Virus record (IMG/VR): IMGVR_UViG_3300038300_000093
DNA length: 64,000 nucleotides
Reading direction: 5' to 3' (one strand)
DNA from: a virus
Lineage: Duplodnaviria > Heunggongvirae > Uroviricota > Caudoviricetes
The notes beneath the pieces were generated by a model, which was not told the origin of the DNA, did no database searches, and saw only the letters and a list, made by a program, of their open reading frames with translations. Below, piece after piece: positions 17,730 through 38,124 of this stretch. The translations under genes were made by a program, and so were the position numbers. Positions within the stretch are counted from its first letter, which is position 1; each line of letters begins with the position of its first letter.

Positions 17730-17833
17730 GAGGTTGTCCTTTTCTTTAAGTTATTTATACTATATCAGCTTAATTAATAATTGCAAGCCCTACTTTGAAG
17801 ATAAGGCAAAATCAACTTTCGTGCCTTATCTTT

Positions 17834-18187
17834 TCATCTTGCATTAATATCGTTTTCTTTATATATTAAATTTATCTCTTGATAAATTGATCCTAACTTC
17901 AACTCAGCTTCCATCTTTTGATACTTCTCTCTCAGCTGATTAAATAAAGTCTCAGAGATTTCTTTAAATCCAAAACTCTCAATAATGTGGAACTTTCCAT
18001 CAATGAATATTAAATCGCCAGAACTAACAGAAGGATAATCTCTAGGCTGAAATTCATTCTGGCCATATCTATAGATTAAATCTAACTTATCTTCTAATGT
18101 TGTATCTTCGTTTAATTCTTCCTCTGGAACTTCTACTGTCCTAAATGAATTTCCTTTGTACTTGCTTACTACATTTGCTCTCATCAT
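17834..18187 (-). CDS. hypothetical protein (117 aa)
   Basis: ORF-track ORF; module upstream. Confidence 0.55.
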   Translation of the reverse strand: MMRANVVSKYKGNSFRTVEVPEEELNEDTTLEDKLDLIYRYGQNEFQPRDYPSVSSGDLIFIDGKFHIIESFGFKEISETLFNQLREKYQKMEAELKLGSIYQEINLIYKENDINAR

Positions 18188-22279: not shown

Positions 22280-22503
22280 ATGTTAGATTTAAATAAATAC
22301 AGTTGTCTTTCTACCAATTCTTCAAGATCATCAATTCTTAAAAATTTACCTTCAGTCGTGTGGACTTGATATTCCGAATCCTTCCTCATCCAAAGGATTT
22401 GAATCTCTTCCTTATTTTTAGTCTTCCATACGTCACCAGCAATATAATGAGTCTCTACGCCAGTAATTAATTCTAACATTGTTAATGAAAAATCGTAACT
22501 CAT
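22267..22503 (-). CDS. hypothetical protein (78 aa)
   Basis: ORF-track ORF; overlaps its neighbours. Confidence 0.5.
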   Translation of the reverse strand: MSYDFSLTMLELITGVETHYIAGDVWKTKNKEEIQILWMRKDSEYQVHTTEGKFLRIDDLEELVERQLYLFKSNICSA

Positions 22504-22733
22504 ACTTTAGACTCCTCTTTCCTAGTATCCGAACATTTCTTACAGTCGGGATCATGCGTTAAAGCGAAACTACTTCCTGAAACAAAAATATAAGTATGAT
22601 TCTTATATCTTTCAATCGTTGTTATGTTTCCGCCAATTCCTTTTTCGTCTTTTTCATCCTTGCCTAACGAATATAAGACGAATGTTACTACTAAAATAAC
22701 TATTATTATTGCGCCTATAAGTATAAATTGCAT
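22500..22733 (-). CDS. small membrane protein (77 aa)
   Basis: N-terminal hydrophobic helix IGAIIIVILVVTFVLY. Confidence 0.5.
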   Translation of the reverse strand: MQFILIGAIIIVILVVTFVLYSLGKDEKDEKGIGGNITTIERYKNHTYIFVSGSSFALTHDPDCKKCSDTRKEESKV

Positions 22734-22795
22734 CTTTTTGAATCCTTTGTTTTACTTTCGTGTCTTATCTTATAGTAATATGAGAAAGCAAAATG

Positions 22796-23299
22796 TCAAG
22801 CCTTGATTGCTTCTTTCTCTTCCTTTAGCATTACAGCATTATGTTTTAACCATGCTGTCAACAAATCAGCGTTGTTCCACTCTACTTTTATGCGTCCAGT
22901 TATTTCATCAAACCACTCACTCAATGTGAAGCAATAAAAATCCCTCTGTCTGTTTTGCCTTTGATTTAAAGTCATATGATAAAATAGCTTTAAACTATGA
23001 ACACTTATTTCCTCTAATATATGTTTGCAAACTTCTTTATCCCAATTATCCCATTTAGCATAAGGAATTTCAAATGAATTATCTCTATAGTGCTTATTGG
23101 TTAAACATCTATAATAATCATTCAGTTTGCTCTTTATTCCCCAGATTAAATCCCCTTTAGTTGTATAATTGTTGCAAAAATCATTTAAACTTATAAAATC
23201 ATCCATGCTTCTAGCTAAATTTCTACAAAACATTACATTTTGAAGTGCTTCTGGGTGATGATATGCGCTGTATAAGTTGTCTAATATATTTGTAAACAT
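22796..23299 (-). CDS. hypothetical protein (167 aa)
   Basis: ORF-track ORF; preceded by the family-B motif TTACTATAAGATAAGACACGAAAGT and AAAAGGACAT before the ATG. Confidence 0.55.
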   Translation of the reverse strand: MFTNILDNLYSAYHHPEALQNVMFCRNLARSMDDFISLNDFCNNYTTKGDLIWGIKSKLNDYYRCLTNKHYRDNSFEIPYAKWDNWDKEVCKHILEEISVHSLKLFYHMTLNQRQNRQRDFYCFTLSEWFDEITGRIKVEWNNADLLTAWLKHNAVMLKEEKEAIKA

Positions 23300-23350
23300 A
23301 TGTCCTTTTTGTTTTACTTTCGTGTCTTATCTTATAGTAACACAAGAATC
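23300..23350 (-). promoter_or_regulatory. family-B upstream motif TTACTATAAGATAAGACACGAAAGT, representative
   Basis: Same 25-mer upstream of the genes starting at 22795, 23299, 23569, 24057, 24300, 29548, 29735, 29898, 30070, and again at 31020-31045 and 31110-31135. It has a TATAAGATAAG -10-like element and no -35. Confidence 0.45.
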
Positions 23351-23569
23351 CTAAATTTCTACATATCCTGTTACATTTACTAAAGTTTCTTCGTCTAAGT
23401 AAGTAGTTGTATGAGTTCTCATGCTTACTACTTCTCTCATTTCAAACTTCTCTCCTCTGTAATTGTCAAGAGCAATATAAGATCTGTCAGAAGTGGAAAC
23501 TATAAATTTAGCGAGTCCATCTAATTCTTTTAATGGCGTTGCAAGCTTTTCATTGAAATCATTATTCAT
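23351..23569 (-). CDS. hypothetical protein (72 aa)
   Basis: ORF-track ORF; family-B motif upstream. Confidence 0.5.
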   Translation of the reverse strand: MNNDFNEKLATPLKELDGLAKFIVSTSDRSYIALDNYRGEKFEMREVVSMRTHTTTYLDEETLVNVTGYVEI

Positions 23570-23658
23570 TTTTGTTGTCCTTTTGTTTAACTTTCGTGTC
23601 TTATCTTATAGTAACGCAAGAATCCTAAACTTCAAGACCTTTATTAAAAATCGTACTG

Positions 23659-23772
23659 GATTAAATTAACTTTGCCAGACTCATCTTGACCATCTTGATT
23701 TGGAACTTCCCAATTGTTATTTACACAGCTTCCTGCTAACAATAAAATTAATACCATGATTAGCTTTTTCAT
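23659..23772 (-). CDS. possible small lipoprotein or secreted peptide (37 aa)
   Basis: Hand-translated: MKKLIMVLILLLAGSCVNNNWEVPIKMVKMSLAKLI, with a lipobox-like LLAGSC. ATGA overlap with the upstream gene's stop. Confidence 0.3.
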
Positions 23773-24026
23773 TTTACTTCCTTTTCTTTATATATGAATT
23801 GTACTTTCTTAATATAATCATATCTATAATGATTACAACGCTTGCAAACAATGTTAATTTCTTTAGTACTGCTCTTCAGCTCGCTTGAGTCAATATCTTT
23901 AAGCTGCAGACCACAAACAGTTCTATTACTACTATTTATAATATGTATCTTACTTCCATTCTTATATAACCATCTACTTCTTTTGTATATCGGACGTATT
24001 GTAAATATTATAGGAGACTTATTCAC
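23769..24026 (-). CDS. hypothetical basic protein (85 aa)
   Basis: ORF-track ORF. Confidence 0.5.
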   Translation of the reverse strand: MNKSPIIFTIRPIYKRSRWLYKNGSKIHIINSSNRTVCGLQLKDIDSSELKSSTKEINIVCKRCNHYRYDYIKKVQFIYKEKEVK

Positions 24027-24057
24027 TTTCGTGCCTTATTTTTTAGAAATTGACATT

Positions 24058-24300
24058 CTACGTAAGCCACGGATTACTCTCAAGAGCGTTTAAATTTCTT
24101 TCAATATTATCCTCTTCCGAGAAAGATGCTATTCTGTCATAAGTCTCGTTGTACCATCCTCTATCTCTAAGACCATAAGTGATTGAAGTTGGGATTCCAA
24201 ACAATTTCATCCAAAAAGTCTTTTCTTTAGTGATAGTAACCTGATAAACAACTCCTGAACTATTCTTTACCATTTCAAATGAATTCATATTAAAATCCAT
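24058..24300 (-). CDS. hypothetical protein (80 aa)
   Basis: ORF-track ORF. Confidence 0.5.
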   Translation of the reverse strand: MDFNMNSFEMVKNSSGVVYQVTITKEKTFWMKLFGIPTSITYGLRDRGWYNETYDRIASFSEEDNIERNLNALESNPWLT

Positions 24301-24302
24301 GA

Positions 24303-25100
24303 TTATCTCCTAATGCTAATTGGCATTTTAGGACTTTCGTGTCTTAACTTTTGGCAGATATCCTTTCTCAATTCTTTATCAATAGCTTCTAAGGCTTCCT
24401 CATCTCTTTCAAGATAGTTAGCAATCTCAAGATTAACTTTCTGATAACGAGCCTTTCTCTTGACGTTCAACTCACTCCTAAGCTTTTCAATCTTGTCCTT
24501 TAGAATTTTCTCTTCTTTCTCTTCTTCACTATAATCATAAATCTCTTCTTTGATCCAACAAGTGTCAATACGATCAAAGGCATTTAACAGCATCTCACTG
24601 TTACTCTCTTCGTATTCTTTATTTAATCTGTCAATTACTTTCTGAATACTTGCATTTACTTCAGCAATCTTGACCGAAATGTAAAGCTCGCAGTTCTCTT
24701 CTGTATCTTTTCTAAGTGCCTCAAACATCTCATCTTTAATCTTTTGACGCTTAGATTGTATCTTTGGAACTCCTTTCCAACTTCTTTCACTTTTGCAATT
24801 TAGATAGAAAAGATTAAATCCTAAGAAATTCTCCGGTACTTCCTTACTCGAAAAAGGGAACTTTAAAGTAAAAGTCTTCATCATTGTAGGATCATTGTAG
24901 TTTCTATCATTATACTCTGGAGAACTCTCAGTCCATTCTCCAATTTCAAAATCTTCCTTCTTAAGAGGAGTGAATTCGTATCTTGGATGTCTCTCGATGA
25001 AACTTGTGTGCTTTACGATATTGCTGCTGACTACTTCTGTAGGCATTCCAATCAAATCTTTCTCATCTACTTCTTTAACATCTATGTTGATTTTTCTCAT
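24303..25100 (-). CDS. hypothetical protein (265 aa)
   Basis: ORF-track ORF; family-B-like motif upstream. Confidence 0.6.
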   Translation of the reverse strand: MRKINIDVKEVDEKDLIGMPTEVVSSNIVKHTSFIERHPRYEFTPLKKEDFEIGEWTESSPEYNDRNYNDPTMMKTFTLKFPFSSKEVPENFLGFNLFYLNCKSERSWKGVPKIQSKRQKIKDEMFEALRKDTEENCELYISVKIAEVNASIQKVIDRLNKEYEESNSEMLLNAFDRIDTCWIKEEIYDYSEEEKEEKILKDKIEKLRSELNVKRKARYQKVNLEIANYLERDEEALEAIDKELRKDICQKLRHESPKMPISIRR

Positions 25101-25170
25101 TTTTGTGTCCTTTATTTTAACTTAATATTAATATAGCTTAACTTTAGAAAGGTTCAAGCCATATTTAGCA

Positions 25171-25530
25171 TTAATTTCCAATTAGCCAATCTTTAACTGA
25201 TTGCTTTGTAATTAAGTTTCCCTTTTTCCTTTGCATTCCCTTTAGAATGCCAGTGTTTAACATTCTATTGATTGTCTTAGAACATCGTTTAATTTCATGA
25301 GAAACTTCTTTAACGCTCATGTACTCAGTGCAGTGTTTCAAGATCTCTTCTTCTGATCTGAATTTTATGATTTCCTTCGACATTTTATTTAATCTGTCAA
25401 CTATTATGTCTATGTCATCTCGATCCTCTAAATCATAATAATGACACTCTTCGCCGTCTTCATTGAAAATGTTAATACGTTGATCGTCTGTTGGTTCTAC
25501 TTCATAATGATATAATTCTTCTTGTGTCAT
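25171..25530 (-). CDS. hypothetical protein (119 aa)
   Basis: ORF-track ORF. Confidence 0.55.
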   Translation of the reverse strand: MTQEELYHYEVEPTDDQRINIFNEDGEECHYYDLEDRDDIDIIVDRLNKMSKEIIKFRSEEEILKHCTEYMSVKEVSHEIKRCSKTINRMLNTGILKGMQRKKGNLITKQSVKDWLIGN

Positions 25531-25595
25531 TTTATGTCCTTTATTTTAACTTAATATTAATATAGCTTAACTTTAGAAAGGTTCAAGCCATATTT

Positions 25596-25817
25596 TTAAA
25601 TAATATCTAATTTGGTGTAAACTCTCAAACATCCTAAACAGTCAGATCCCTCAACATACAGGCAAGAAGGACATTGAGGATGTAAAGTATTGTTCACTAA
25701 TATTAAATTCTCTTGAAAGCAAGCATCTACTTCAAATTCTTTCCCACAGCCACACTTGCATATGGCCCATTCATCTAAGTGAGGGAATCGCGAGAGTATC
25801 TTCAAATATTTAATCAT
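25596..25817 (-). CDS. small Cys-rich zinc-binding-like protein (73 aa)
   Basis: Contains CKCGCG...CPSC...CLGC. Confidence 0.55.
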   Translation of the reverse strand: MIKYLKILSRFPHLDEWAICKCGCGKEFEVDACFQENLILVNNTLHPQCPSCLYVEGSDCLGCLRVYTKLDII

Positions 25818-25861
25818 AATAAAAAAGACAGACTCTTTTAAAAGCCTGCCTTATTAATCTG

Positions 25862-26272
25862 TTAGAGAATTTCTACATTGAGATGTGGACTAACGCGACC
25901 ATTCATCTTTGTAAGTGTTGGCTGTTTAAGCTCGCTCATGGCCTCTTTCGCGCCTTCCTTGATCTCCGTTACTTTATCGGGATCAACTGTCAGAGACTCC
26001 TTAATAACACTTTCAAGAGTTACTCCGTTAAGCTTAGACATTAATACTGAAATTATGTCCCAAGGCTGAGCTTTCGCTACTACTCTTTGCTCAAAATCTT
26101 TGCCTTTATCTAAAGTTCCAGTAATACGAACCAAAATGTCTACTTTGTTTTCGCCTGTTGGAATCTTACTTGATACTTCTTTAGCATCAGCCTCACGGAT
26201 TGTCTTGTACAATGCAGTTAGTGCTAATACTTCTAGTTTGTCTGTGCCTGTCGTTCTTGTAGTCTTTTTCAT
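25862..26272 (-). CDS. hypothetical protein (136 aa)
   Basis: ORF-track ORF. Confidence 0.55.
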   Translation of the reverse strand: MKKTTRTTGTDKLEVLALTALYKTIREADAKEVSSKIPTGENKVDILVRITGTLDKGKDFEQRVVAKAQPWDIISVLMSKLNGVTLESVIKESLTVDPDKVTEIKEGAKEAMSELKQPTLTKMNGRVSPHLNVEIL

Positions 26273-26341
26273 TGTCTTGTCCTTTATTTAAGATACTATT
26301 AATCTAACACCCCAAATAAAGAAGTCAAGCCATGTTTTCAA

Positions 26342-26587
26342 TTATTTTCTATCAAATCCTAATATTCCAGAATGTTCTGTCTTCCCATCCTCATAATACT
26401 CTTTTGCGCGAGAAGAATAATACATTACTTTATTACACTGAGTACATTTATATCTATGAAGATCTACATCAACTGTCGTTGACTCCTCATGGCCATCAAT
26501 CCAAATATCGTCATACTCTCCAGCTAAATCATCATAATAATCTTCCCAATGTCCAGATACTTTTCTAGTGTGATTACATTCTTTCAT
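26342..26587 (-). CDS. hypothetical protein with a CTQC pair (81 aa)
   Basis: ORF-track ORF. Confidence 0.5.
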   Translation of the reverse strand: MKECNHTRKVSGHWEDYYDDLAGEYDDIWIDGHEESTTVDVDLHRYKCTQCNKVMYYSSRAKEYYEDGKTEHSGILGFDRK

Positions 26588-26802
26588 TGAAATTCCACCA
26601 CTGCTGATTTATTGACAATATACTTAAAAGATGTATCAATAGTTTTAAATATTGTCCCATCATCATTTAATAAACGTACTCTTACATTTGTTTTTTCAAT
26701 ATGTATTGTCAATACATTGGCATTCCATATCTTGCAATATGGCTTGTAGAAAGAATTTCTAGAATATAAAGGATGTTTTCTAAAGTCTACTTCAACTATC
26801 AT
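26584..26802 (-). CDS. hypothetical protein (72 aa)
   Basis: ORF-track ORF; ATGA overlaps on both sides. Confidence 0.5.
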   Translation of the reverse strand: MIVEVDFRKHPLYSRNSFYKPYCKIWNANVLTIHIEKTNVRVRLLNDDGTIFKTIDTSFKYIVNKSAVVEFQ

Positions 26803-27149
26803 TTTTTAGACTCCTTCAAGTCTTTCTCGCAATCTTTGATCTTCTGCTTGGCAATCTTTAACATCTCTTTCATTAACTCTGGATGCGATATACAAAGCTT
26901 ATTGAAACTAGAAGTCCATGAATCTAATTCTGTCATTGATCCGCCACTTACAAGAAACAACCTATCACAACTGGTATGCATTGAAGGATGAATTGTTATG
27001 TGGTTACAATATCCTTTATGGCTTACATCTTGAACATACCTACTTCCAGAATTGATAGTATTAAAAATCTTCTTAGACAATTCTCCATCGTCCTTATCAA
27101 ATAAATGCAATGCATCATTGCTTATTAAAACTGGTGTTAAGTTTCCCAT
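26799..27149 (-). CDS. hypothetical protein (116 aa)
   Basis: ORF-track ORF. Confidence 0.55.
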   Translation of the reverse strand: MGNLTPVLISNDALHLFDKDDGELSKKIFNTINSGSRYVQDVSHKGYCNHITIHPSMHTSCDRLFLVSGGSMTELDSWTSSFNKLCISHPELMKEMLKIAKQKIKDCEKDLKESKK

Positions 27150-27569
27150 TTACATTTCCTCTAAAGCTTCTTCAACTTCTTTCCAATCTTTACTTCCGTC
27201 GAAGCCTGCCTTATCATCAATCAATACATTGAAATAAAACTTGCCATCAAAATTACATAACTCATCTGAAGGACAATCTGGATTGCAATTGAAATGATCA
27301 AATACAATACCAAGATCTTTCAATCTCTCAATATGCTTTTCAACATAATCTTCATAAGATGATGTCCACAATGTTAAAGTACTGTCAGATCTTTCTGTAA
27401 GCTTCTTTAAGACTCTTATGGCATCTGGATAAAATTCATTCTTACCATCATCCTTGGTATAACTACCCGGCATTATAGTGTCATGAAAATCAATACACCA
27501 AAACATCTTATCCCAACCACGTTCTTTCATCTTACTAAATTCTTTCTTTATCGTTTCCTTTAAAGACAT
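27150..27569 (-). CDS. hypothetical protein, possibly a HAD-superfamily-like phosphatase (139 aa)
   Basis: WCIDFHDTI near the N-terminus and NVLIDDKAGFDG near the C-terminus resemble HAD motifs I and IV. The fit to the DxDxT spacing is imperfect. Confidence 0.45.
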   Translation of the reverse strand: MSLKETIKKEFSKMKERGWDKMFWCIDFHDTIMPGSYTKDDGKNEFYPDAIRVLKKLTERSDSTLTLWTSSYEDYVEKHIERLKDLGIVFDHFNCNPDCPSDELCNFDGKFYFNVLIDDKAGFDGSKDWKEVEEALEEM

Positions 27570-27742
27570 TAATCTGTTCCTTTACGTTTTAATTTATTAA
27601 AATCAACCATTACAATGTCTTTAATCTTATTGACATCTTGTCGTCCTGCAATACAAACTGAATTTAATTTAGAACAATAGAAACGCTCTCCTCGGTTTAT
27701 TCTACGCTTCCCTGTGAAAATATATCCAAACATTCCGATCAT
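27569..27742 (-). CDS. small basic protein (57 aa), not in the ORF track
   Basis: Hand-translated: MIGMFGYIFTGKRRINRGERFYCSKLNSVCIAGRQDVNKIKDIVMVDFNKLKRKGTD. TAATG overlap with the downstream gene. Confidence 0.4.
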   Translation of the reverse strand: MIGMFGYIFTGKRRINRGERFYCSKLNSVCIAGRQDVNKIKDIVMVDFNKLKRKGTD

Positions 27743-27867
27743 TCTATATTCCTTTAGTTTTTTATAGAAAGTAAAAATACAACAAGTAATACAAATATTA
27801 TTGACGTGATAATGATATCACGCTTCTGCTCTTTTTTTATTTTCACAATTTATTCCTTTATCTACAA

Positions 27868-27905
27868 TAAATAAAGATCCTGACATTATATCAGGATCTT
27901 TATAG
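27868..27905 (-). terminator. intrinsic terminator after ORF 27918-28625
   Basis: AAAGATCCTGA-CATTATA-TCAGGATCTTT: a perfect 11-bp stem with a T/A-rich tail. Confidence 0.65.
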
Positions 27906-27917
27906 AATCTTTTGCTT

Positions 27918-28625
27918 TTAGACTGTTTCAGCCTTTACTTTTAATTTCTCACTTAAAGCTCTTACTACTTTAGAACCAAGTGTTCTTGTGTTAATGTTAT
28001 CGCCTTTAGGACTTTTTGTTGCAATTCCAAGATTAAACTTTTCATTGGCTTGAAGAATGATTGGTTTTGCAGTTCTCTCATCAAACTTTGACTCTTCTTC
28101 AAGTGTGATTGTTGTTACATCATCTGTAACATCACAAACATTCAAGTAAGAAGTCTCATCACAAAGGAAAGCTTTGACAGTCTTAGATTTCTTTAACACT
28201 AAGACAATAGTAACATCGTCAAGTTTGAACTCAGCCGTATTACTAACAATCTCTTCATCTTTTAAAAACTTATCACCAGATTTACGCTTAATGAATTGAG
28301 GATGCTTGTATACTTCCTTCTTAGACTTCTTAGAATTATTAGACTTCTTAGAATTATTAGAAGTATTAACTCTAGGATTTACCGAAGCCTTCATTGGCTT
28401 CTCAACTTCTACTACAACTGGTGGCTTTACATCAACTGTTTCAAATTTAGATTCAGCTTTGTCAAAAGCATCACTAATGGAATTATCCATTACTTCTTCA
28501 AGTTCCATATCCTCATCAGAAGTTATTAATTCACACTCTTCTTCTTCATCAAAGGAAAACTCTTCAAAATCAAATTCGTCAAGGCCAAGTGATGATAAAG
28601 TTGTTTCTTCCATCTCGTCAGACAT
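27918..28625 (-). CDS. hypothetical acidic protein with an internal NNSKKS repeat (235 aa)
   Basis: ORF-track ORF. Tandem 15-nt repeat at about 28325-28360. Followed by an intrinsic terminator at 27868-27905. Confidence 0.6.
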   Translation of the reverse strand: MSDEMEETTLSSLGLDEFDFEEFSFDEEEECELITSDEDMELEEVMDNSISDAFDKAESKFETVDVKPPVVVEVEKPMKASVNPRVNTSNNSKKSNNSKKSKKEVYKHPQFIKRKSGDKFLKDEEIVSNTAEFKLDDVTIVLVLKKSKTVKAFLCDETSYLNVCDVTDDVTTITLEEESKFDERTAKPIILQANEKFNLGIATKSPKGDNINTRTLGSKVVRALSEKLKVKAETV

Positions 28626-28762
28626 ATTCGGTACTCCGTTTCTTATTTTTATATTTTCAGCATTGTGCTGTTATCATTGATTGTTTCAATGGTACAATAT
28701 GACACCTCATAAAAATAAGTCAAGACGACTTATAACTTTTTTTTAAATAAATATATTATTAA

Positions 28763-28827
28763 TTCCCAGGTTGAATTAATTAAAAAACCGGGTATAGTAA
28801 GATTAGTAACTAAAAAGGAACAACTAA
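28763..28827 (+). promoter_or_regulatory. plus-strand (inverted) copy of the family-A stem-loop / TATAGTAAGATTAGTAA module
   Basis: CCCAGGTTGAATTAATTAAAAAACCGGG-TATAGTAAGATTAGTAACTAAAAAGGAACAACTAA-ATG. This is the only copy in the window that faces the plus strand. Confidence 0.4.
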
Positions 28828-28973
28828 ATGATCTCTATCTTATCATGCACTCTTAACCAGCAGCCTTCTCTGATTAGCTTATCTTCAATAATCTTTTTAC
28901 CAAACTCAGTTTTAAAAAAAATATCTCTAAAGATAGAAGTTTTAGACATAGGAGTTCCAGCATATACAATCAT
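28824..28973 (-). CDS. micro-protein (49 aa) with C-terminal ..EGCWLRVHDKIEII motif
   Basis: Hand-translated. ATGA overlap with the upstream micro-gene. C-terminal motif shared with ORFs 39705-39902, 40371-40583, 53575-53793, 54123-54320 and 54800-55054. Confidence 0.35.
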   Translation of the reverse strand: MIVYAGTPMSKTSIFRDIFFKTEFGKKIIEDKLIREGCWLRVHDKIEII

Positions 28974-29149
28974 GCTATCTCCTTATCATATAATCTTAGC
29001 CAACCGCCTTCTTCTATCATCTTGTCCTCACGACGAATTTCTTTGCCAAAGTCTGTTTCGTAAAGAATTCTATTGTATTCGGCATAACTCATATTAAGTG
29101 AAGTTGTTCTTAAGTACTCGCTGGAAAATTCATTAAAATTAATTATCAC
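28970..29149 (-). CDS. micro-protein (59 aa with GTG start) ending ..GGWLRLYDKEIA
   Basis: Hand-translated. GTG start at 29149-29147, preceded by AGAGGAATATCTAAAGTG, a 19-nt translation initiation region duplicated at 29357-29375. Confidence 0.35.
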   Translation of the reverse strand: MIINFNEFSSEYLRTTSLNMSYAEYNRILYETDFGKEIRREDKMIEEGGWLRLYDKEIA

Positions 29150-29195
29150 TTTAGATATTCCTCTTTGCTATACAGCCTTAGACTTCCGACTTCCT

Positions 29196-29366
29196 CTATA
29201 GTTCATCTCCTACTATCTCCCAGTATCTAGATCTATGGGGCTGAATTAATAAATGTCCATCCTCACATGATTCTTTATTTTCCCTACAATACAAACATAA
29301 TTTGTATTTACTTTCTATGAACACCTTGTAAGTCTTTAAACATAAAATACAATTCACGGTTTTCAC
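29196..29366 (-). CDS. Cys-x2-Cys zinc-ribbon micro-protein (56 aa, GTG start)
   Basis: Hand-translated: (V/M)KTVNCILCLKTYKVFIESKYKLCLYCRENKESCEDGHLLIQPHRSRYWEIVGDEL. SD-like AGAGGAA 8 nt before the GTG. GTGA overlap with the upstream gene's stop. Confidence 0.4.
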   Translation of the reverse strand: MKTVNCILCLKTYKVFIESKYKLCLYCRENKESCEDGHLLIQPHRSRYWEIVGDEL

Positions 29367-29548
29367 TTTAGATATTCCTCTCTGTCAGATACTACCAAAA
29401 CGCCTTTCTCACATTTAATCATTTTCTTGATGCAAATAAAACAATAAAGTCCTGAAAGTGAATGCTCATCGACAGGCCAATCTATATGAGAAGAAGTGAA
29501 ATAATGCATCCCACATAAATAACAAATGTCTCTCGAATCATATTTCAT
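29363..29548 (-). CDS. Cys-x2-Cys zinc-ribbon micro-protein (61 aa)
   Basis: ORF-track ORF containing CYLCGMH...CFICIKK. Start context CACGAAAGTTGATATG. Confidence 0.5.
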   Translation of the reverse strand: MKYDSRDICYLCGMHYFTSSHIDWPVDEHSLSGLYCFICIKKMIKCEKGVLVVSDREEYLK

Positions 29549-29549
29549 A

Positions 29550-29735
29550 TCAACTTTCGTGCCTTATCTTCTCACCTACTATCATTAAACCTCCTCTGCC
29601 ATGATAAAAACTATTGTATTTAATGCGAAAACAACTGTTACATAAAATCTTATCAAGTAATATTAAATGACGATCAGGTTCATAAATAACCACATCACCA
29701 GTTATACATAAACTACATTTAAAATGTTTTTCCAC
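29550..29735 (-). CDS. Cys-x2-Cys zinc-ribbon micro-protein (61 aa, GTG start)
   Basis: ORF-track ORF containing CSLC...CNSC. The start codon at 29735-29733 is GTG, lying inside the conserved CACGAAAGTG motif. Confidence 0.45.
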   Translation of the reverse strand: MEKHFKCSLCITGDVVIYEPDRHLILLDKILCNSCFRIKYNSFYHGRGGLMIVGEKIRHES

Positions 29736-29898
29736 TTTCGTGCCTTATCTTCTTAGAGATATATAAATAACCATTATATGCAAAAGAAGATCTGTACTTT
29801 AGATAGTGACAACTTTGACACAAATCTTCAAACCCAACATGTTGAGAATCGCAAAGATTACACTCGACTTTTATGTTATAACTACTCCCACAATCCAT
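29719..29898 (-). CDS. Cys-x2-Cys zinc-ribbon micro-protein (59 aa), not in the ORF track
   Basis: Hand-translated: MDCGSSYNIKVECNLCDSQHVGFEDLCQSCHYLKYRSSFAYNGYLYISKKIRHESGKTF. Start context CACGAAAGTTGATATG. Confidence 0.4.
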   Translation of the reverse strand: MDCGSSYNIKVECNLCDSQHVGFEDLCQSCHYLKYRSSFAYNGYLYISKKIRHESGKTF

Positions 29899-29899
29899 A

Positions 29900-30070
29900 T
29901 CAACTTTCGTGCCTTATCTTTTTAGAAATGAATAAACTGCCATCCATGCTATACTTCTTACTAAGTTTAAAACAATCAAAACAGAAACTACCACTACAAA
30001 CAATACTACTGTTTGAAAAAAATACAGTTGCATAATCGCGATTACAAAAAGTACATTGATAAGAATGCAT
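29900..30070 (-). CDS. Cys-x2-Cys zinc-ribbon micro-protein (56 aa), not in the ORF track
   Basis: Hand-translated: MHSYQCTFCNRDYATVFFSNSSIVCSGSFCFDCFKLSKKYSMDGSLFISKKIRHES. TGATATG overlap with the next gene. Confidence 0.4.
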   Translation of the reverse strand: MHSYQCTFCNRDYATVFFSNSSIVCSGSFCFDCFKLSKKYSMDGSLFISKKIRHES

Positions 30071-30100
30071 ATTAACTTTCGTGCCTTATCTTATAGAAAT

Positions 30101-30355
30101 TCAACATCTGTACTTTGTATCATTACCAGAAGGAGGAATCTTATTAAACTTAGGAAGTTCAGGCTTACCAGTATGAGCATCGTTCAACTCTTCAAGTGTA
30201 GCAGTTGTCTGCTTCTCTCGTAAAGGATCTATCTCATGTACAAATGTTAAATTTAAATGATTCTTAACTATCTTTACTTGCTCGTCTGTCATTTCATCAG
30301 ATCCAGAGATCTCAAAAAAACCCTGTAACCAAAAACAAAAATCTATACTATTCAT
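30101..30355 (-). CDS. hypothetical protein (84 aa)
   Basis: ORF-track ORF. Confidence 0.5.
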   Translation of the reverse strand: MNSIDFCFWLQGFFEISGSDEMTDEQVKIVKNHLNLTFVHEIDPLREKQTTATLEELNDAHTGKPELPKFNKIPPSGNDTKYRC

Positions 30356-30356
30356 A

Positions 30357-30509
30357 TTACTTCCTCACCATTCTAGTCTTATTACAATCTGGACAAACAA
30401 ACATATAAGGAATTGGCTCCTTCTTATCTGTAAAGAATCCTATCCTATACATAAGTGTACAAGGAGGCGCTGGTGGACATTTATGTTTCTTCTTTTTCTT
30501 CTTTCCCAA
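30357..30509 (-). CDS. small basic zinc-ribbon protein (about 50 aa, TTG start), copy 1 of a duplicated gene
   Basis: Hand-translated: (L/M)GKKKKKKHKCPPAPPCTLMYRIGFFTDKKEPIPYMFVCPDCNKTRMVRK. Canonical SD AAGGAG 9 nt upstream of TTG. A second copy about 90% identical at the nucleotide level lies at 52960-53112. Confidence 0.45.
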   Translation of the reverse strand: MGKKKKKKHKCPPAPPCTLMYRIGFFTDKKEPIPYMFVCPDCNKTRMVRK

Positions 30510-30685
30510 CTCTCTTCTCCTTCATTTAAAAATTCATTAAACATTACAAGAATGATTGGCATTCCGGGTCTCCGCAGATAACTATAATATTTATTAAATC
30601 TTTCACATCCATTTATACCGTTAAATTATCTTAGATATATAATATAAAACAAGATTATAATTTTGCAAGACGATTCTTTAATTTT

Positions 30686-31260
30686 TATCTCTCGTGCTCA
30701 AATGGTCTACTTTTCCCATATAGAGAAAGACAAAATTCTTTTACAGTTCCCTTGTCTGCCAGATTCATCTGACAGACGTCTTTAATATACACGCCCAAAC
30801 CAACTTGTCAAGCCCCAAATCATTCACAACATGTAAAAACTTACACACTAATATATCTAATCAATCACTCTGGGTAATCTTTTACTCATTAACTTCTCCC
30901 CGACTGGGATCTTTCGGTCTTTCCCTATATGCCAGAATAACACTTTTCGTGCTTGAGGAGTCTACTTTTCCCATATAGAAGAAGACAACAATCCCCCAAC
31001 AGGGAAACAATCATTATTTACTTTCGTGTCTTATCTTATCCTATATAACAATAATAACACTTTTTGTGCTTGAGAGGTCTTCTTTTCCCATATAGAGAAA
31101 GACAAAATTTACTTTCGTGTCTTAACTTCTGGTAGATCCATCTGACAGAATGACCTGAACGGGTTCTTTTTATATCTCTCAGGGCTTTCTGACAAAAAAA
31201 GAAATTTTAAACTTTCGTGCTCAAATGGTCTACTTTTACCATATAGAAGAAGACAAAAAT
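30686..31260. repeat. four dispersed copies of a ~47-bp element CTTTCGTGCT(CAAATG/TGAGGA)GTCTACTTTTCCCATATAGARAAGACAAAA
   Basis: Copies at about 30686-30740, 30943-30998, 31062-31112 and 31205-31258. Each carries an imperfect inverted repeat around TATATGGG. Interspersed are TCTGACAG boxes (30770, 31140, 31188, 31375, 31425) and family-B motifs. Confidence 0.6.
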
Positions 31261-31516
31261 AACTTAATGAATATTATTCTGTACATTCCTCTGGGTTGAT
31301 GGCTAATATTCTGTACAATAGTTGCACAAACATCTATTCATTGGGTTATATCTGGGTTAAAAGATGCACAAGCATCTGACAAATCTACTTTTTTTTGAAA
31401 ATCCTTTTTTCAAATCTGACAGAATTTTTAATTTCTGGGACATTTGTCAGTCTTTTTTGTGTTTTTTTGCTATTTTTTGCTATTTATCACTGTTATTTGA
31501 CCCGTATTTCTAATTC

Positions 31517-31603
31517 AAAAACATTTCACGCCCTCTACACTAATATCTATTTGAGGTTAAATTTAATTAACATCAAACATTTCACGCCCTCTACACTAAT
31601 ATA
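31517..31603. repeat. 28-bp direct repeat AACATTTCACGCCCTCTACACTAATAT, two copies 55 bp apart
   Basis: Exact duplication at 31517-31547 and 31572-31603, in non-coding DNA. Confidence 0.6.
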
Positions 31604-31897
31604 GTAATATGTTATATATTAATTATTAAATCTATATCCCAGAGAGCCTTTTGGGGCATCTGTGCTGTATTTAGACAATTAAAACGTTATGGAGGTCATA
31701 TTATGCCTTACTCGCTCTCTAAGGAGCTTAATTGGCATATTAATTTCAACTAGTTTTAAGTAAAGCGTTTTAAAGATTGCAATATGATTACTATGTTACT
31801 ACTATACCTACATATATACTCTTGGTAGTCTATATAGGTATATGTATTATATGTTCTACTGTATATATCTATTCTAGTATATGCTTTTTGTATTTAT

Positions 31898-31974
31898 CTA
31901 TTTTTTTGTACTTGTAGTGTTTACTCATATTTTTTCTTGTATCTTATAATTTGCACTTGTAGTCTTTACTTATC
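31898..31974. repeat. AT-rich direct repeats GYACTTGTAGTSTTTACTYATNTTTTTTCTTG, two copies
   Basis: 31898-31929 and 31942-31974, inside a >200-bp AT-rich tract (31780-31990) with no ORF. Confidence 0.5.
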
Positions 31975-31992
31975 TTTTTTCTTGGATTGTAT

Positions 31993-32232
31993 TTATTGTT
32001 TCCATTTTCCTAGGAAGTAATTCAGATTCATTCCTGAGCCATAGCCAATTTTCTCATCTATTAATTTTTCAAAATTTAAGCTGAAATTCTCGTCATAAAT
32101 AAATAGGCAGCCTTTAAATTCTTCCTTGTATTTTCTAGGAACTATGCTACTACTATACAGGTTAAATTCTATTGGGAATATATTGTCGAATACTTTCCTG
32201 TGATCTTCTTCTTTTATATTCTTATATTTCAT
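31993..32232 (-). CDS. KGCLFVYDD-family paralog (79 aa)
   Basis: Contains FKGCLFIYDENF; first member of the tandem array. Confidence 0.6.
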   Translation of the reverse strand: MKYKNIKEEDHRKVFDNIFPIEFNLYSSSIVPRKYKEEFKGCLFIYDENFSLNFEKLIDEKIGYGSGMNLNYFLGKWKQ

Positions 32233-32324
32233 TGCTTAGAGGGTCTTCTATTATTTAAAGTTTTACAGAATAAATTAAAGCCCCATTCTCTGAGAAAGTC
32301 ATCCAGATCTATTCCGGTATTCTT

Positions 32325-32500
32325 TTGAACTTTTTCCTGTCCTGTCCTGTCCGGCTCTTGTGGCTCTTGCTCTGTCTTGTCCTCTTGTGGCTCTTGCCTT
32401 GCTTTATTCTGTCCGGCTCTTGTGGCTCTTGCTCTTGTCCGGCTTTGCCTTGCTTTGCTCTTGTCCTCTTGTGGCTCTTGCTCTGTCCTGCCCTGCTCTG
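32325..32500. repeat. GC-rich minisatellite (CTCTTGTGGCTCTTGC / TGTCCGGCT units)
   Basis: At least 7 tandem units. Encodes the low-complexity tail of ORF 32404-32655. The same CCGGCTCTTG unit occurs at 19085-19125 inside ORF 18676-19182. Confidence 0.6.
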
Positions 32501-32655
32501 TCTAGTATTTTTTCAAATCTTGAGCTGAAATTATCGTCGTAAACAAATAGGCATCCTTTATATTCTTCCTTGAATCTAACTGGGCAGAATCCTATTGGGA
32601 ATATATTGTCTAAGACCTTATCGTGATCTTTAATATCTATATGCTTATCATTCAT
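32404..32655 (-). CDS. KGCLFVYDD-family paralog with a low-complexity tail (83 aa)
   Basis: Contains YKGCLFVYDDNF. The C-terminus is encoded by the GC-rich repeat at 32325-32500. Confidence 0.55.
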   Translation of the reverse strand: MNDKHIDIKDHDKVLDNIFPIGFCPVRFKEEYKGCLFVYDDNFSSRFEKILDRAGQDRARATRGQEQSKAKPDKSKSHKSRTE

Positions 32656-32658
32656 TAT

Positions 32659-32946
32659 TTAAAGTCTCTTAGACATTCCATTCTGGCTTGTGGTTGAGAG
32701 TAGTCTTGGAGTTCTTCCTTGTAGGTTTACCCTATTCCATTCTCTTAGGAAGTATTCCAATGTTAATCCTGAACTATAGCCTATTTTCTCATCCATTAAA
32801 TCTTCAAACTTTAAGATGAATTCCTCATCGTATACAAATAGGCAGCCTTCGTATTCTTCCTTGTATTTAATCGGGTGGAATCCTACTGGAAATATGTTCT
32901 CTACTACCTTCTTGTGATCTTCTTCTTCTATTACTTTATAGTTCAT
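32659..32946 (-). CDS. KGCLFVYDD-family paralog (95 aa)
   Basis: Contains YEGCLFVYDEEF. Confidence 0.6.
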   Translation of the reverse strand: MNYKVIEEEDHKKVVENIFPVGFHPIKYKEEYEGCLFVYDEEFILKFEDLMDEKIGYSSGLTLEYFLREWNRVNLQGRTPRLLSTTSQNGMSKRL

Positions 32947-33135
32947 TTACTGCAATCTTGCAAAGAGGGCTGATTTACAAATTTCTTTCCTGAACTCTTC
33001 ATCGTAAATAAATAGACATCCTTCGTATTCAGCATTATACGGCCATCGCCTTGACAGCCTTGACCTATACTCCTCCTTATAGAAATTGTTTCTTGCCTTC
33101 TTATAGTCTTCTTTCTCTATTACTTTATAGTTCAT
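32947..33135 (-). CDS. KGCLFVYDD-family paralog (62 aa)
   Basis: Contains YEGCLFIYDEEF. TAAATG junction with the next gene. Confidence 0.55.
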   Translation of the reverse strand: MNYKVIEKEDYKKARNNFYKEEYRSRLSRRWPYNAEYEGCLFIYDEEFRKEICKSALFARLQ

Positions 33136-33329
33136 TATTTATTCCATTCTTTGTCATTCCATTCTTTGAGGAAACATTCCAAATTATCAAAGCTTGAGCA
33201 GAACTTATCATCATATATAAATAGGCATCCTTTAAATTCTTCTTTACATTTTCTTGGGTTGAATACTAATGGGAATACGTTGTTGAATGCTTTCTTATAG
33301 TCTTCTTCTTTTATATGCTTATCATTCAT
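33135..33329 (-). CDS. KGCLFVYDD-family paralog (64 aa)
   Basis: Contains FKGCLFIYDDKF. Confidence 0.55.
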   Translation of the reverse strand: MNDKHIKEEDYKKAFNNVFPLVFNPRKCKEEFKGCLFIYDDKFCSSFDNLECFLKEWNDKEWNK

Positions 33330-33332
33330 TAT

Positions 33333-33533
33333 TTAAAGCTTCCAATGAAAATGGACTTTTCCAACTTCTTCCTTGAAAAGATCATCATATACAAATAGGC
33401 ATCCTTGGAAGTTATCACCAATAATTCTTTTATGCAATATCGCTCTCTCCAACCGTTTATTTCTGATTCTCTCTCTTATAAAGTTTTCCGTTGTCTTCTG
33501 ATAGTCTTCAATGTCTATATGTTTATAGTTCAT
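33333..33533 (-). CDS. KGCLFVYDD-family paralog (66 aa)
   Basis: Contains FQGCLFVYDDLF. Confidence 0.55.
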   Translation of the reverse strand: MNYKHIDIEDYQKTTENFIRERIRNKRLERAILHKRIIGDNFQGCLFVYDDLFKEEVGKVHFHWKL

Positions 33534-33718
33534 TACAATCGCCAGTGTGGAAATTGCATTTCAAAGCTTTCCTTGAAGAGATCATCATATACAAATAGGC
33601 ATCCTTTATATTCATCACTATATAAGTTAACTGTTACAGAGTCTTTTCTACATCTCTCAGTGTGGAAATTGTACATTGTCTTCTGATGGTATTTCTCATC
33701 TATATTCTTATAATTCAT
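33533..33718 (-). CDS. KGCLFVYDD-family paralog (61 aa)
   Basis: Contains YKGCLFVYDDLF. Confidence 0.55.
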   Translation of the reverse strand: MNYKNIDEKYHQKTMYNFHTERCRKDSVTVNLYSDEYKGCLFVYDDLFKESFEMQFPHWRL

Positions 33719-33721
33719 TAT

Positions 33722-33946
33722 TCACTTCTGCAGTCTAAGATTTAGGTATTCAAGGTCATGAAATTTGTCAAATTTTTCCTTAAATTTGTCATCATATACA
33801 AATAGACATCCTTTATATTCTTCACTATATAGAAGTGGAGTTCCTCTAAACTGTATTCTACGAATCTCTTCCCTGAAATTTTGTCTTGCCTTCGAATAGT
33901 CTTCAATGTCTATATGTTTATAGTTCATTAGCCAATACAGCTCCAC
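33722..33946 (-). CDS. KGCLFVYDD-family paralog (74 aa)
   Basis: Contains YKGCLFVYDDKF. Confidence 0.55.
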   Translation of the reverse strand: MELYWLMNYKHIDIEDYSKARQNFREEIRRIQFRGTPLLYSEEYKGCLFVYDDKFKEKFDKFHDLEYLNLRLQK

Positions 33947-34251
33947 ATAAGGCTTATAATATAATCCACTCTTTTATGGACTTCTGCCATTGATGGTTGA
34001 TCTATAACTACTCCAAAGAAAATCCCACCATATGACTCAGAACCATCTGGGTTTATTCCAAGTTCAATAGAACCAAATCCCTTATGTCCATTCACAGTGA
34101 AATAGTAAGATCGCTCACAGTCACATTCAGTATCACAGTCACAATACTCTGCATGACAAGCAACATTACTATCTTTATAGTTTTTAACCATCATTCTCAT
34201 TTCTCTTTTATCGCATACATATAAGAATACTTGACTTTGATAGCTTGTCAA
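33928..34251 (-). CDS. Cys-rich hypothetical protein (107 aa)
   Basis: ORF-track ORF containing CHAEYCDCDTECDC. Confidence 0.5.
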   Translation of the reverse strand: MTSYQSQVFLYVCDKREMRMMVKNYKDSNVACHAEYCDCDTECDCERSYYFTVNGHKGFGSIELGINPDGSESYGGIFFGVVIDQPSMAEVHKRVDYIISLMWSCIG

Positions 34252-34374: not shown

Positions 34375-34560
34375 CTATCTCTCATCATTACAATGAACAG
34401 GTTGAATTGCAGTTGAATATCTGTCCCAATTCAAGTTTATCCCTAAACCAGCTTCAACTTTTTCTGCCATTCGGAGAGACTTATTTGGTTCACCAATCTT
34501 CTCAACCTTTCCGGTCTCATCACATATAACTACAACTTGATGTCTCATTTCTGTACTCAT
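34375..34560 (-). CDS. hypothetical protein (61 aa)
   Basis: ORF-track ORF; preceded by a degenerate family-A module at 34561-34625. Confidence 0.5.
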   Translation of the reverse strand: MSTEMRHQVVVICDETGKVEKIGEPNKSLRMAEKVEAGLGINLNWDRYSTAIQPVHCNDER

Positions 34561-34643
34561 TTATTTGTCCTTTTGTTTTAATCTTACTATAAAGGATTAA
34601 TTGGACTTTTCAAGCCCTTCTGGTAAGAAAACATACTCTATAC

Positions 34644-36592: not shown

Positions 36593-36722
36593 TTGGCACT
36601 ATAACTCTGTTGTCGCATTCATGATTTTTAACCAATTCAACAACATCTTTAAATTCTTTCTTTTTATAATTCATATATAAAAATACATGCCTTTAGGAGA
36701 TTTTCAAGCTGTTTCTTGTTTT

Positions 36723-36992
36723 TTATTCGTAATCATAATGTGACATCTTAAAGAGCCAATCTTTTAACCAGTAACCATCTTTTCTTCTCTTAAAGACTCG
36801 CTCATTCTCAAAGCCATTCGGCCAATGATAACATTTAGTATCGTTGAAATAGAAAGAAAATGAATTATCATAAACGAATAAACATCCTTGAAATTCTTTC
36901 TGTCTCTGATAGCCACCACTTATAGTTACAAGGTCTATGTTTTTTGCCACTTTATCATGGTCTTTCATTCCTATTTCTTTATAATGTATCAT
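36723..36992 (-). CDS. KGCLFVYDD-family paralog (89 aa)
   Basis: Contains FQGCLFVYDNSF. Confidence 0.55.
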   Translation of the reverse strand: MIHYKEIGMKDHDKVAKNIDLVTISGGYQRQKEFQGCLFVYDNSFSFYFNDTKCYHWPNGFENERVFKRRKDGYWLKDWLFKMSHYDYE

Positions 36993-37492: not shown

Positions 37493-37655
37493 ATTATAAA
37501 ATTCCTATTTATGAAGCCCCAATCACAGACTTTGACTAGATATTCTAAGAATTCACTATCACATACAAACAGACAACCTTTGAAGTCCAGACCTTTCCTG
37601 CCTTTACGCCTATTTATCATAATCTTATGATATTCAATTTTTTTTACAGCTGTCA

Positions 37656-37922
37656 TTATGAATGCCCAAATCTATGATTGTAATAAATGTTTAATTCTAT
37701 CTTCTTTCTATTTTTCAGCCAATCATCTAAGCTTCGAATAGGATTAGAATTCATAGGATCGCTATACATACTTATCAATCCATTTAAGAAACAATCTGCG
37801 TGATCTTCAAATTCTTGATCATATAGAAATAAACATCCTTTTATTTCTTCATTATTAATCATGGACAGTGAATCTATTACTTTACTGTAATCATCTGAAT
37901 GTATTTTTTTTATAGTTATCAT
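37656..37922 (-). CDS. KGCLFVYDD-family paralog (88 aa)
   Basis: Contains IKGCLFLYDQEF. An additional degenerate unannotated copy, DFKGCLFVCDSEF, lies at about 37500-37640. Confidence 0.5.
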   Translation of the reverse strand: MITIKKIHSDDYSKVIDSLSMINNEEIKGCLFLYDQEFEDHADCFLNGLISMYSDPMNSNPIRSLDDWLKNRKKIELNIYYNHRFGHS

Positions 37923-38119: not shown

Positions 38120-38124
38120 ACTTA

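Follow-up and report, generated by a model that had tools for sequence, protein, structure and literature searches.

What is the short sequence that recurs directly before start codons in the 64,000-nucleotide (nt) stretch of the Caudoviricetes record IMGVR_UViG_3300038300_000093 (hereafter, the window), and does it represent a second class of promoter? All genes of the window are on the minus strand, and its GC content is ~33%. A first-pass annotation had singled out a repeated upstream 25-mer, TTACTATAAGATAAGRCACGAAAGT, and proposed it as a distinct promoter or translation-initiation class, separate from a module designated family A. Within the 25-mer is an invariant 14-base core, TAAGRCACGAAAGT, referred to below as the 14-mer or B core. 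This feature is real, statistically secure and conserved in a new lineage of uncultured phages. Our preferred interpretation, to which we give somewhat better than even credence, is that the 25-mer comprises the -10 box and approximately the first 12 transcribed nt of a sub-family of sigma-70-type early-promoter cassettes.

With up to three mismatches allowed, the 25-mer has six matches in the window, all on the minus strand, and none in any of 100 shuffled sequences, which confirms the repeated upstream element as a distinct sub-family. Three of the copies are exact (22754-22778, 23316-23340 and 23590-23614). The 14-mer occurs in 12 exact copies between 17.8 and 31.1 kb (0.03 expected), only on the minus (gene) strand (Table 1), and CACGAAAGT is likewise confined to that strand, with 13 copies; the 14-mer is common to all 13 copies, and the TTACTAT part is present in only three to five of them. 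By context, the 12 copies in the window comprise three promoter-type, five junction or start, one coding, one 3' untranslated region (UTR) and two non-coding copies. The details on which the element was first described are largely correct. CACGAAAGTTGATATG is found exactly at 29546-29561 and 29896-29911, and the sequence at 30068-30083, CACGAAAGTTAATATG, differs from it by one mismatch; ATGs adjoin the motif at 29548, 29898 and 30070, and a GTG lies inside the motif for the open reading frame (ORF) at 29550-29735 and likewise for ORF 23769-24026. Most copies also fall inside the range originally assigned, 22734-31140, but the copy at 17815-17832 lies outside it. The element does not, however, take the place of family A after 22.7 kb, since A-type promoters recur at 25160, 25589, 30671, 30814 and 34616, nor is the right-hand block devoid of both modules, with A-type promoters at 48575, 51344 and 53164.

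Relatives of the phage were located by scanning metagenome contigs with AAGWTAAGRCACGAAAGT, and multi-copy contigs were found in JAAHTG010000049.1 (133 kb), Ga0164321, Ga0114918, Ga0210003, Ga0075119 and FUWD01; individual related contigs are given below by L numbers. Homologous genes of these relatives are only 65-80% identical to those of the window, with the exception of L061, which is ~97% identical in one protein, and the 14-mer is 100% identical in at least six related contigs at this level of gene identity. A search for more distant relatives with a variant motif, using a paralog-family profile and neighbouring contigs, turned up only lineages with the identical motif. No near-identical DNA was found among 50,697 phage records, tblastn with the 559-amino-acid (aa) ORF of the window gave no match in the phage records, and the RNA ligase and a 406-aa ORF gave only distant matches in the searches for relatives. 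Within IMG/VR, the exact 18-mer that contains the core had one chance coding match only, and protein-seeded scans with three window ORFs found no relatives. Genomes in GTDB yielded 11 single motif matches in unrelated taxa, and thus no link to a host or prophage.

An indication of what the 25-mer does comes from the sequence upstream of it. A pattern search identified 61 cassettes in the window, all built as G[GT]CTTGnnn, a 16-nt spacer and TAnnnT, followed in order by an AAGAT(A/T)AG-like stretch, a modular leader, an AAAGGA Shine-Dalgarno (SD) sequence and ATG; these leaders are designated L1 to L4 and B. Of the B copies, those at 22802 and 23638 match the common geometry exactly, and an independent promoter scan reports TTGACA-16-TACTAT at 22799-22772 with 10 of 12 matches. 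The three promoter-type copies of the window (5' coordinates 22771, 23333 and 23607) have TACTAT directly before them and an AAAGGA SD and ATG after them. When the relatives are included, all 14 promoter-type copies have TTG.. 16 nt before TACTAT or TATTAT, the -35 forms being TTGACA, TTGAAG, TTGCAT or similar and TGn usually being present, and their consensus is aGGtCTTGaA.TtTaa.TTTCcTGTGTTACTAT, then AAGATAAGACACGAAAGT, then tAAacAaa. The -35 element that the first-pass annotation had thought missing is therefore found at exactly 16 nt upstream in every promoter-type copy, and the T4-late-like TATAAGATA on which it had relied is restricted to copies with TACTAT or TTCTAT and absent from the consensus of the other 30 copies. 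Aligned hexamer on hexamer and with no indel, TACTAT followed by AAGATAAG in B corresponds to TATAGT followed by AAGATTAG in family A; the core that the two families had been said to share is indeed present in both, as AAGAT(T/A)AG close to the transcription start site (TSS). From promoter geometry, with the end of the -10 taken as position -7, transcription would start ~7 nt after TACTAT, at the A of AAG(A/G)CACG, and the mRNA would begin near AGACACGAAAGU. The stem-loop of leader L1 (AGUAAG...CUUACU) would begin exactly at the predicted +1, in agreement with this placement. We also considered a MotA-box-like upstream activator site, which was rejected because no -10 is found at a fixed distance downstream of the motif.

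The ~58 further cassettes (GGGCTTGnn, 16 nt, TATAGT or TATATT), about as many as there are small genes, are found on the minus strand at 1-22100, 25130-25590, 34560-34620, 48490-48620, 51290-51345 and 53100-53165. Their -35 lies inside a GGGCTT...AAGCCC inverted repeat, and they carry four interchangeable leaders, of which L1 is AAGATTAGTAAGAAGCACTAAGCAAGCTTACTAAAAAAA.

A second temporal class driven by a phage-encoded factor is likewise not supported by the gene content of the window. A Pfam scan of its 138 ORFs (E<=1e-4) detected 11 families (ThyA, Thg1-like, RNA ligase, PTH2, HNH, Lar, SLT, TM2, DUF4116, HTH_17 and PHA02142, the last being the OB-fold domain of the RNA ligase ORF), and no sigma factor, gp55-like protein or RNA polymerase was found among them.

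The B core differs from the other leaders in its autonomy. Leader cores L1 to L4 are coupled to a promoter in 35 of 35 cases and the B core in 3 of 12. Across the window and its relatives, the exact 14-mer is found in 51 distinct contexts, always in the sense orientation, and in the 30 non-promoter copies conservation is confined to the 14-mer itself. For example, the four junction copies between tandem micro-genes are 100% identical over 18 nt, with zero synonymous variation, whereas the proteins of the micro-genes share only 27-37% identity and their DNA aligns poorly. These copies either terminate the upstream ORF as KIRHES or sit just past its stop codon, and the next ATG is 4 nt away or the next GTG is overlapped; the close relative L061 has five such junctions as compared with the four of the window. 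Selection acting on the protein only, which had been foreseen as the observation that would undo a DNA-level element, is ruled out by the invariant DNA, the use of a second frame and the non-coding copies. Only four of the 13 copies in the window are coding, the copy at L062:14620, unchanged in L042, falls in a 170-aa ORF that reads it in another frame (DKTRK), and four genomes retain the non-coding copies at orthologous positions, in an alignment that averages 63% column identity. It should be noted that the constraint is not universal. The coding copy at 24350 has changed in relatives, with one mismatch in L062 (CTC) and five in L049 (AAGAGAAGAAGAA), and by its sequence is probably a decaying relic. 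The copy at 17832 is found in a 3'-UTR context similar to that of L063:2103, and its AAGATAAGGCA pairs with downstream TGCCTTATCTT in an 11-bp hairpin (-16.2 kcal/mol, z -2.4).

Variation at the single A/G (R) position of the motif follows the translational context. The proposal of a translation-initiation class is supported for the G form, in which UAAGG resembles an SD and 13 of 18 contexts have a start codon adjoining the motif (offset -2 to +6), but not for the A form (UAAGA), which abuts a start in one of 33 contexts, an internal in-frame GTG. A separate AAAGGA SD and start are found with 17 A copies, in which the SD and ATG lie 16-28 nt past the motif, and with no G copy. The difference in abutment is highly significant (Fisher p = 2e-7), with contexts that are partly non-independent, the window and L061 being close relatives. 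The usual SD of the window is AAAGGA, and in 71 of 94 cases its AAGG is spaced 7-9 nt from the start; in the motif, AAGG precedes the start by 7 nt in the GTG copies and by 13 nt in the ATG(+4) copies. These distances, together with the fact that two of the five abutting starts in the window are GTG, do not bear out a leaderless-like signal; GTG is a poor start for leaderless initiation. For instance, the copy at 24042-24025 places UAAGG 7 nt before its GTG and is preceded by a sigma-70-like TTGAGA-17-TAGAAT promoter at 24083-24055. Both arrangements are seen in one set of orthologs, where L042 has a full B cassette, TAATCAAAGGATAACA, followed by ATGAACAAATCGCC (promoter, SD and ATG), and the window, L061 and L062 have TAAGGCACGAAAGTGAATAAGTC (UAAGG-N7-GTG). 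The G form is thus most likely to act as a compact SD-spacer-start junction, which may be aided by stop/start coupling (AGT TGA T ATG). A second repeated junction module, AGAGGAATATCTAAAGTG, is found at 29149-29166 and 29366-29383, where a GAGGA SD is followed after 9 nt by GTG, and serves two further micro-genes (ORFs 28970-29149 and 29196-29366).

By analogy, the closest known kind of element would be the PeSL cassettes of T4-type phages, which combine an AT-rich stretch, a stem-loop, a sigma-70 promoter, an SD and ATG and are much repeated among ORFans (PMC4122927). Early and middle sub-classes and degraded 'half' PeSLs have been described (Comeau et al. 2014, PMC4122927), and the interval from the -10 to the SD/ATG has been mapped as the site of PeSL crossovers (Arbiol et al. 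2010, PMC2839356). The resemblance of the present cassettes to PeSLs and PmSLs extends to near-identical units of ~60-90 nt before small ORFans, a sigma-70-like -35/-10, a stem-loop that is strong in the relatives and weak in the window cassettes, an SD and start, several sub-classes per genome, half-cassettes, and indel or replacement junctions between related phages. The two differ in that the spacer here is 16 nt, that the B stem-loop encloses the -10 while that of PeSLs lies upstream of the -35, and that the 3' 14 nt are here mostly found alone, invariant across genomes and doubling as an SD in the G form.

The stem-loop itself is best seen in the relatives, where an inverted repeat brackets the -10, with one arm in the spacer (AACTTTCCTGTGT) and the other in the motif (ACACGAAAGTT); it is perfect over 16+16 nt in L062:13967. 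The L062 and L012 cassettes fold as single-stranded RNA at -20 to -21 kcal/mol (z ~-6), stem cells are paired in 93% of cases as compared with 30-56% in slid-partner controls, and most changes in the left arm replace A by G opposite U or C by U opposite G, with 15 wobble-compatible changes. No U-tract follows the stem-loop, and a leader beginning at the predicted TSS lacks the 5' arm and is unstructured. The structure resembles the 'SL' of a PeSL interleaved with the promoter, and may have an insulator or processing function. Several other structures were tried and rejected. Hammerhead-type and other known ribozymes, prompted by CUG..GAAA-like strings, are disfavoured by the lack of any Rfam match; a search of Rfam 15 gave no gathering-score match in the whole window and only chance-level matches (E 0.45-4.6) in 22-32 kb, none of them on the motif. 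A conserved hairpin 'H' (GTCTT..AAGAC) beside the non-coding copies keeps its 5' half and varies in its 3' half without pairing, and a CAC-GAAA-GUG tetraloop mini-hairpin and a lambda boxB-like GAAAA loop have stems of 2-3 bp that are not predicted to form.

Comparison of gene order indicates that the motif coincides with the borders of exchanged modules. One gene is joined to three unrelated upstream contexts, in each case exactly at the motif. In the window, the ORF 22267-21710 block has upstream of it a module of the B cassette and the ortholog of ORF 22500-22733; in L062 this module is downstream of the orthologs of the block, and in L063 the B cassettes are on the opposite side of the non-coding region described below.

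Taken together, these observations lead us to lean, with a confidence only a little above even, towards a sigma-70-like, PeSL-type cassette with a separable 14-base leader core, and hence towards no new class of promoter or polymerase. Host RNA polymerase would start at B cassettes and produce an mRNA with an open, unstructured leader. In the full cassettes of the relatives, TAAGRCACGAAAGT would be the 3' arm of a stem-loop with the -10 in its loop, which could fold only in read-through RNA arriving from upstream; here the inverted repeat is seen and its function is presumed. In the G form, UAAGG would provide the SD for abutting starts and so give a compact intercistronic junction in arrays of micro-genes. 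No invariant patch between the -10 and the SD is longer than TAAGRCACGAAAGT, which would also be the joining point for gene modules shuffled between genomes. The SD role of the G form is supported by correlation and spacing, and the joining role by comparative junctions.

Several observations weigh against this interpretation. The TSS is placed from promoter geometry only, and the window has no more than three promoter-type copies, whose stem-loops are weak (z -0.6 to -1.3). The covariation score of the stem falls short of significance, being reached by 40 of 500 shuffles. Use as an SD accounts for the G form only, and the 13-nt AAGG spacing at the ATG(+4) junctions is atypical. PeSLs are defined in T4-type phages; the present lineage is unclassified, and the window yielded no recognisable T4 core gene. 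In L013 and L028, a related element (TTTGAGCACGAAA) occupies homologous positions in inverted orientation, an arrangement more readily reconciled with recognition of double-stranded DNA. Finally, invariant copies without a nearby start are found in 3' UTRs (17832 and L063:2103), in the interior of the L062:14620 ORF and in non-coding clusters, so that sigma-70 recognition, SD function and recombination scars are insufficient as an explanation. For the promoter-less A-form copies, the most probable reason for invariance is that a phage or host factor recognises them, either as RNA or as DNA.

Bearing on such a factor is the conserved non-coding region near 31 kb (Table 1), for which a control region, an origin and a group of small RNA genes are candidate identities. 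It contains four 53-nt repeats, TTGTCTTYTTCTATATGGGAAAAGTAGAC-N6-AGCACGAAAGT, each ending in a AGCACGAAAGT-like sequence, and a strong, near-consensus TTGACA-16-TATATT promoter at 30811-30784; no Rfam match was found in it. Two exact 28-nt repeats, AAACATTTCACGCCCTCTACACTAATAT, are also present (31519-31546 and 31575-31602), as are hairpins of the TCTGTCAGA type. Each 53-nt repeat is followed by CATTTGAGCACGAAAGT, and the exact reverse complement of this sequence, ACTTTTCGTGCTCAAATG, is found at homologous positions in two relatives (L013:309/457/689 and L028:1382, as compared with 31219/31070/30696 in the window); the inversions are local, cover 7-18 nt and have no consistent pairing partner. 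Pairing of forward CACGAAAGT with the inverted L013 copy was rejected, a partner being available for only one of three units. The features of this region and the inverted element keep both DNA-operator and RNA-site explanations alive. It is possible, though less likely than not, that TAAGRCACGAAAGT is the site of a dedicated phage-encoded factor, either a protein or a small RNA, that co-ordinates an early regulon. An equally tentative extension is that this factor is titrated or produced by the 1.4-kb region, with its three to six motif copies among promoter and hairpin repeats.

One specific version of this idea, which we regard as rather unlikely, is that the 14-mer is an asymmetric DNA operator for a phage regulator, such as the HTH_17-like product of ORF 25171-25530. 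Overlap with the TSS of B promoters would then provide shut-off or timing, with a cluster of sites in the control region and others dispersed like the C1 operators of phage P1. The motif does span ~-2 to +12 of the promoter-type cassettes, the inverted repeat with the spacer surrounds their -10 in the relatives, the untranscribed spacer TTTCCTGTG is likewise conserved, five to six copies cluster in the conserved non-coding region, and the related element changes orientation between genomes. ORF 25171-25530 encodes a 119-aa early protein with a C-terminal, sub-threshold HTH_17-like match (24 bits, E = 4.8e-5, as compared with a Pfam cut-off of 27) and is the only candidate DNA-binding regulator noticed near the B cassettes. 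The uniform sense orientation of the 51 exact copies is nevertheless difficult to explain for an operator, as are the variable distance from the promoter (0, ~14 or ~26 nt, or no promoter) combined with a constrained distance from the start codon, and an R position that follows the need for an SD, which is a property of RNA. Moreover, a dimeric operator with arms ~30 bp apart would be out of the ordinary, and the window preserves the left arm poorly. The P1 operators are many asymmetric sites of ~14-17 bp, some overlapping promoters and scattered over the genome; they occur in both orientations and are untied to start codons, whereas the motif here has one orientation. The boxes of host regulators (CRP, LexA, Spo0A, DnaA and cre) are not known to bear a convincing likeness to it.

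No less doubtful is the possibility that the 14-mer acts in the transcript, as a site for a phage RNA-binding protein, an endoribonuclease or an antisense RNA, either in RegA/RegB-type control of early mRNA or in processing of polycistronic RNA that gives the resulting pieces a 5' leader like that of a primary B transcript. This would fit a strictly sense motif found in 5' leaders, intercistronic junctions and 3' UTRs, and a predicted leader that is single-stranded. In L062 and L028 the motif also lies inside a transcript, ~26 nt downstream of a strong TTGACA/TATATT promoter, but the copy after this promoter is degenerate in the window and L013. Similarly, the complement ACTTTTCGTGC is present on the sense strand of the non-coding region in L013 and L028, but this anti-motif is not found in the window itself. 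No RNase or RNA-binding domain was detected among the 138 window ORFs, in addition to the lack of an Rfam match, and an invariant site of 14 nt is long for a protein-only RNase.

It is very unlikely that the promoter-less copies are neutral scars of cassette recombination, or strand-specific nick sites of the T5/tf-like kind cut by a phage endonuclease, with no role in expression. Decay of the coding copy at 24350 in L062 and L049, the junctions of unrelated upstream and homologous downstream sequence that coincide with the motif, the presence of copies on one strand and an HNH gene at 44087-44422 would all be compatible with scars or nicks. However, the non-coding and junction copies are identical at orthologous positions in surroundings that are ~70% identical, where a 14/14 match has a chance of ~0.007 per pair at 70% per-site identity. 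The R position, moreover, co-varies with translational context, and the copies occupy only a sub-region of ~10-14 kb and are not dispersed along the genome.

The model least compatible with the data, and one to which we give almost no weight, is that of the first-pass annotation, a middle or late promoter for phage machinery (T4-late-like or an ~18-nt single-subunit RNA polymerase promoter) with short or absent leaders: although it could account for an invariant block of 14-25 nt, co-oriented with genes and 0-32 nt upstream of many starts, comparable in length to T7-type or Syn5-type promoters and in some copies containing an TATAAGATA that resembles TATAAATA, it is disfavoured by the fixed 16-nt -35 and TGn in all promoter-type copies, the absence of TATAAGATA from most copies, the G variant, whose role as an SD requires transcription to start upstream of the motif, the two abutting GTG starts, the copies in 3' UTRs or ORFs without a downstream gene start, and the lack of a sigma factor, gp55 or RNA polymerase among the ORFs of the window.

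T4 late promoters (TATAAATA, gp55/gp33-dependent) and those of T7-type RNA polymerases resemble the motif as short conserved blocks near starts and co-oriented with genes, but the cassettes here have a canonical -35 and TGn, do not conserve the T4-like octamer and carry the motif inside the mRNA as an SD. The strong early promoters of coliphage T5 are reported to have conserved initially transcribed regions. As here, T5 early promoters use host sigma-70, are numerous, are similar past +1 and lie in an early region read in one direction; their downstream regions are loosely similar and not detached, whereas the 14-mer is invariant and mostly detached.

Table 1. Positions of the 14-mer, its cassettes and the adjoining non-coding region in the window
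Feature	Coordinates	Strand	Description
Exact 14-mer TAAGRCACGAAAGT (low coordinates)	17815, 22754, 23316, 23590, 24025, 24333, 29553, 29734, 29903, 30075, 31020, 31111	minus	
Full B cassette 1	22734..22802	minus	-35 GGCTTGACA 22802-22794; 16-nt spacer; TACTAT 22777-22772; 18-mer AAGATAAGACACGAAAGT 22771-22754; AAAGGA SD; ATG 22733 (ORF 22500-22733)
Full B cassette 2	23570..23638	minus	-35 GTCTTGAAG 23638-23630; 16-nt spacer ending TGCGT; TACTAT 23613-23608; 18-mer 23607-23590; AAAGGAC SD; ATG 23569
B cassette 3	23300..23365	minus	Near-duplicate of cassette 2; degraded -35 (GTAGAA); TGtTACTAT; 18-mer 23333-23316; SD; ATG 23299
G-variant copy	24042-24025, within 24024..24083	minus	Last GT and next G form the GTG of ORF 23769-24026
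Coding copy AAGTTAAGACACGAAAGT	24333..24350	minus	In 3' end of ORF 24303-25100, read KLRHES
Four identical junction copies of AAGATAAGGCACGAAAGT	30092-30075, 29920-29903, 29751-29734, 29570-29553	minus	Between tandem CxxC...CxxC micro-genes
Two A-variant copies	31128-31111, 31037-31020	minus	In non-coding region; positions kept in L013, L028/L063, L039/L062
G-variant copy	17799..17832	minus	Just past stop of ORF 17834-18187; followed by family-A promoter
Junction sequences carrying the R position			UAAGGCACGAAAGUG, ...GUUGAUAUG; stretch within: CACGAAAGU
Conserved non-coding region	30600..31992 (~1.4 kb)	minus	Syntenic in at least four related genomes; context, not part of the cassette

Other features of the window were noted in the course of the analysis. 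At least 11 paralogous genes (55-95 aa) with an invariant KGCLFVYD(D/E)xF are located at 31993-34250, 36720-38120 and 40760-40980, mostly in tandem with overlapping stop and start codons and directly upstream, in the direction of the genes, of the non-coding region; their homologs are found only within the same phage lineage. Genes of the tRNA- or RNA-repair type (45671-46465, 61475-62458 and one more ORF) encode a Thg1-like 3'-5' polymerase, an RNA ligase with a PHA02142 OB domain and PTH2, and in L065 a T4 Rnl1-type ligase adjoins the Thg1 gene. This gene set suggests a counter-defence against tRNA-cleaving nucleases; no tRNA or transfer-messenger RNA was found in the window. The two largest ORFs are at 49608-51287 (559 aa), with no Pfam or PHROG match, and at 51437-52846 (469 aa), with no Pfam match and matches only to PHROGs of unknown function. 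A perfect palindromic hairpin of 13-15 bp with T-runs on both strands at 27871-27903, after ORF 27918-28625, is by its form a likely bidirectional intrinsic terminator. Contig L002 (Logan SRR12939118) is an independent assembly of the same phage that corresponds to 23311-25135 of the window and ends exactly at a B cassette (23311) and a duplicated A-type cassette (25135), which implies that the cassette repeats fragment short-read assemblies of this lineage.

The apparent second promoter class would therefore be one module of a combinatorial cassette system with a common -35/-10 geometry and interchangeable leaders. This extends the PeSL idea beyond T4-type phages, to a lineage without a cultured relative and at an extreme density of about one cassette per kb. 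What would be new is an autonomous 14-base leader core that switches between A and G according to the need for ribosome binding and marks the joints used in the exchange of small genes. Should a dedicated phage factor recognise the 14-mer, it would define a compact early regulon, and this uncultured lineage of large phages from marine sediment would have a new circuit for early-gene control; if not, the motif would be a clean natural example of a minimal, portable translation junction.

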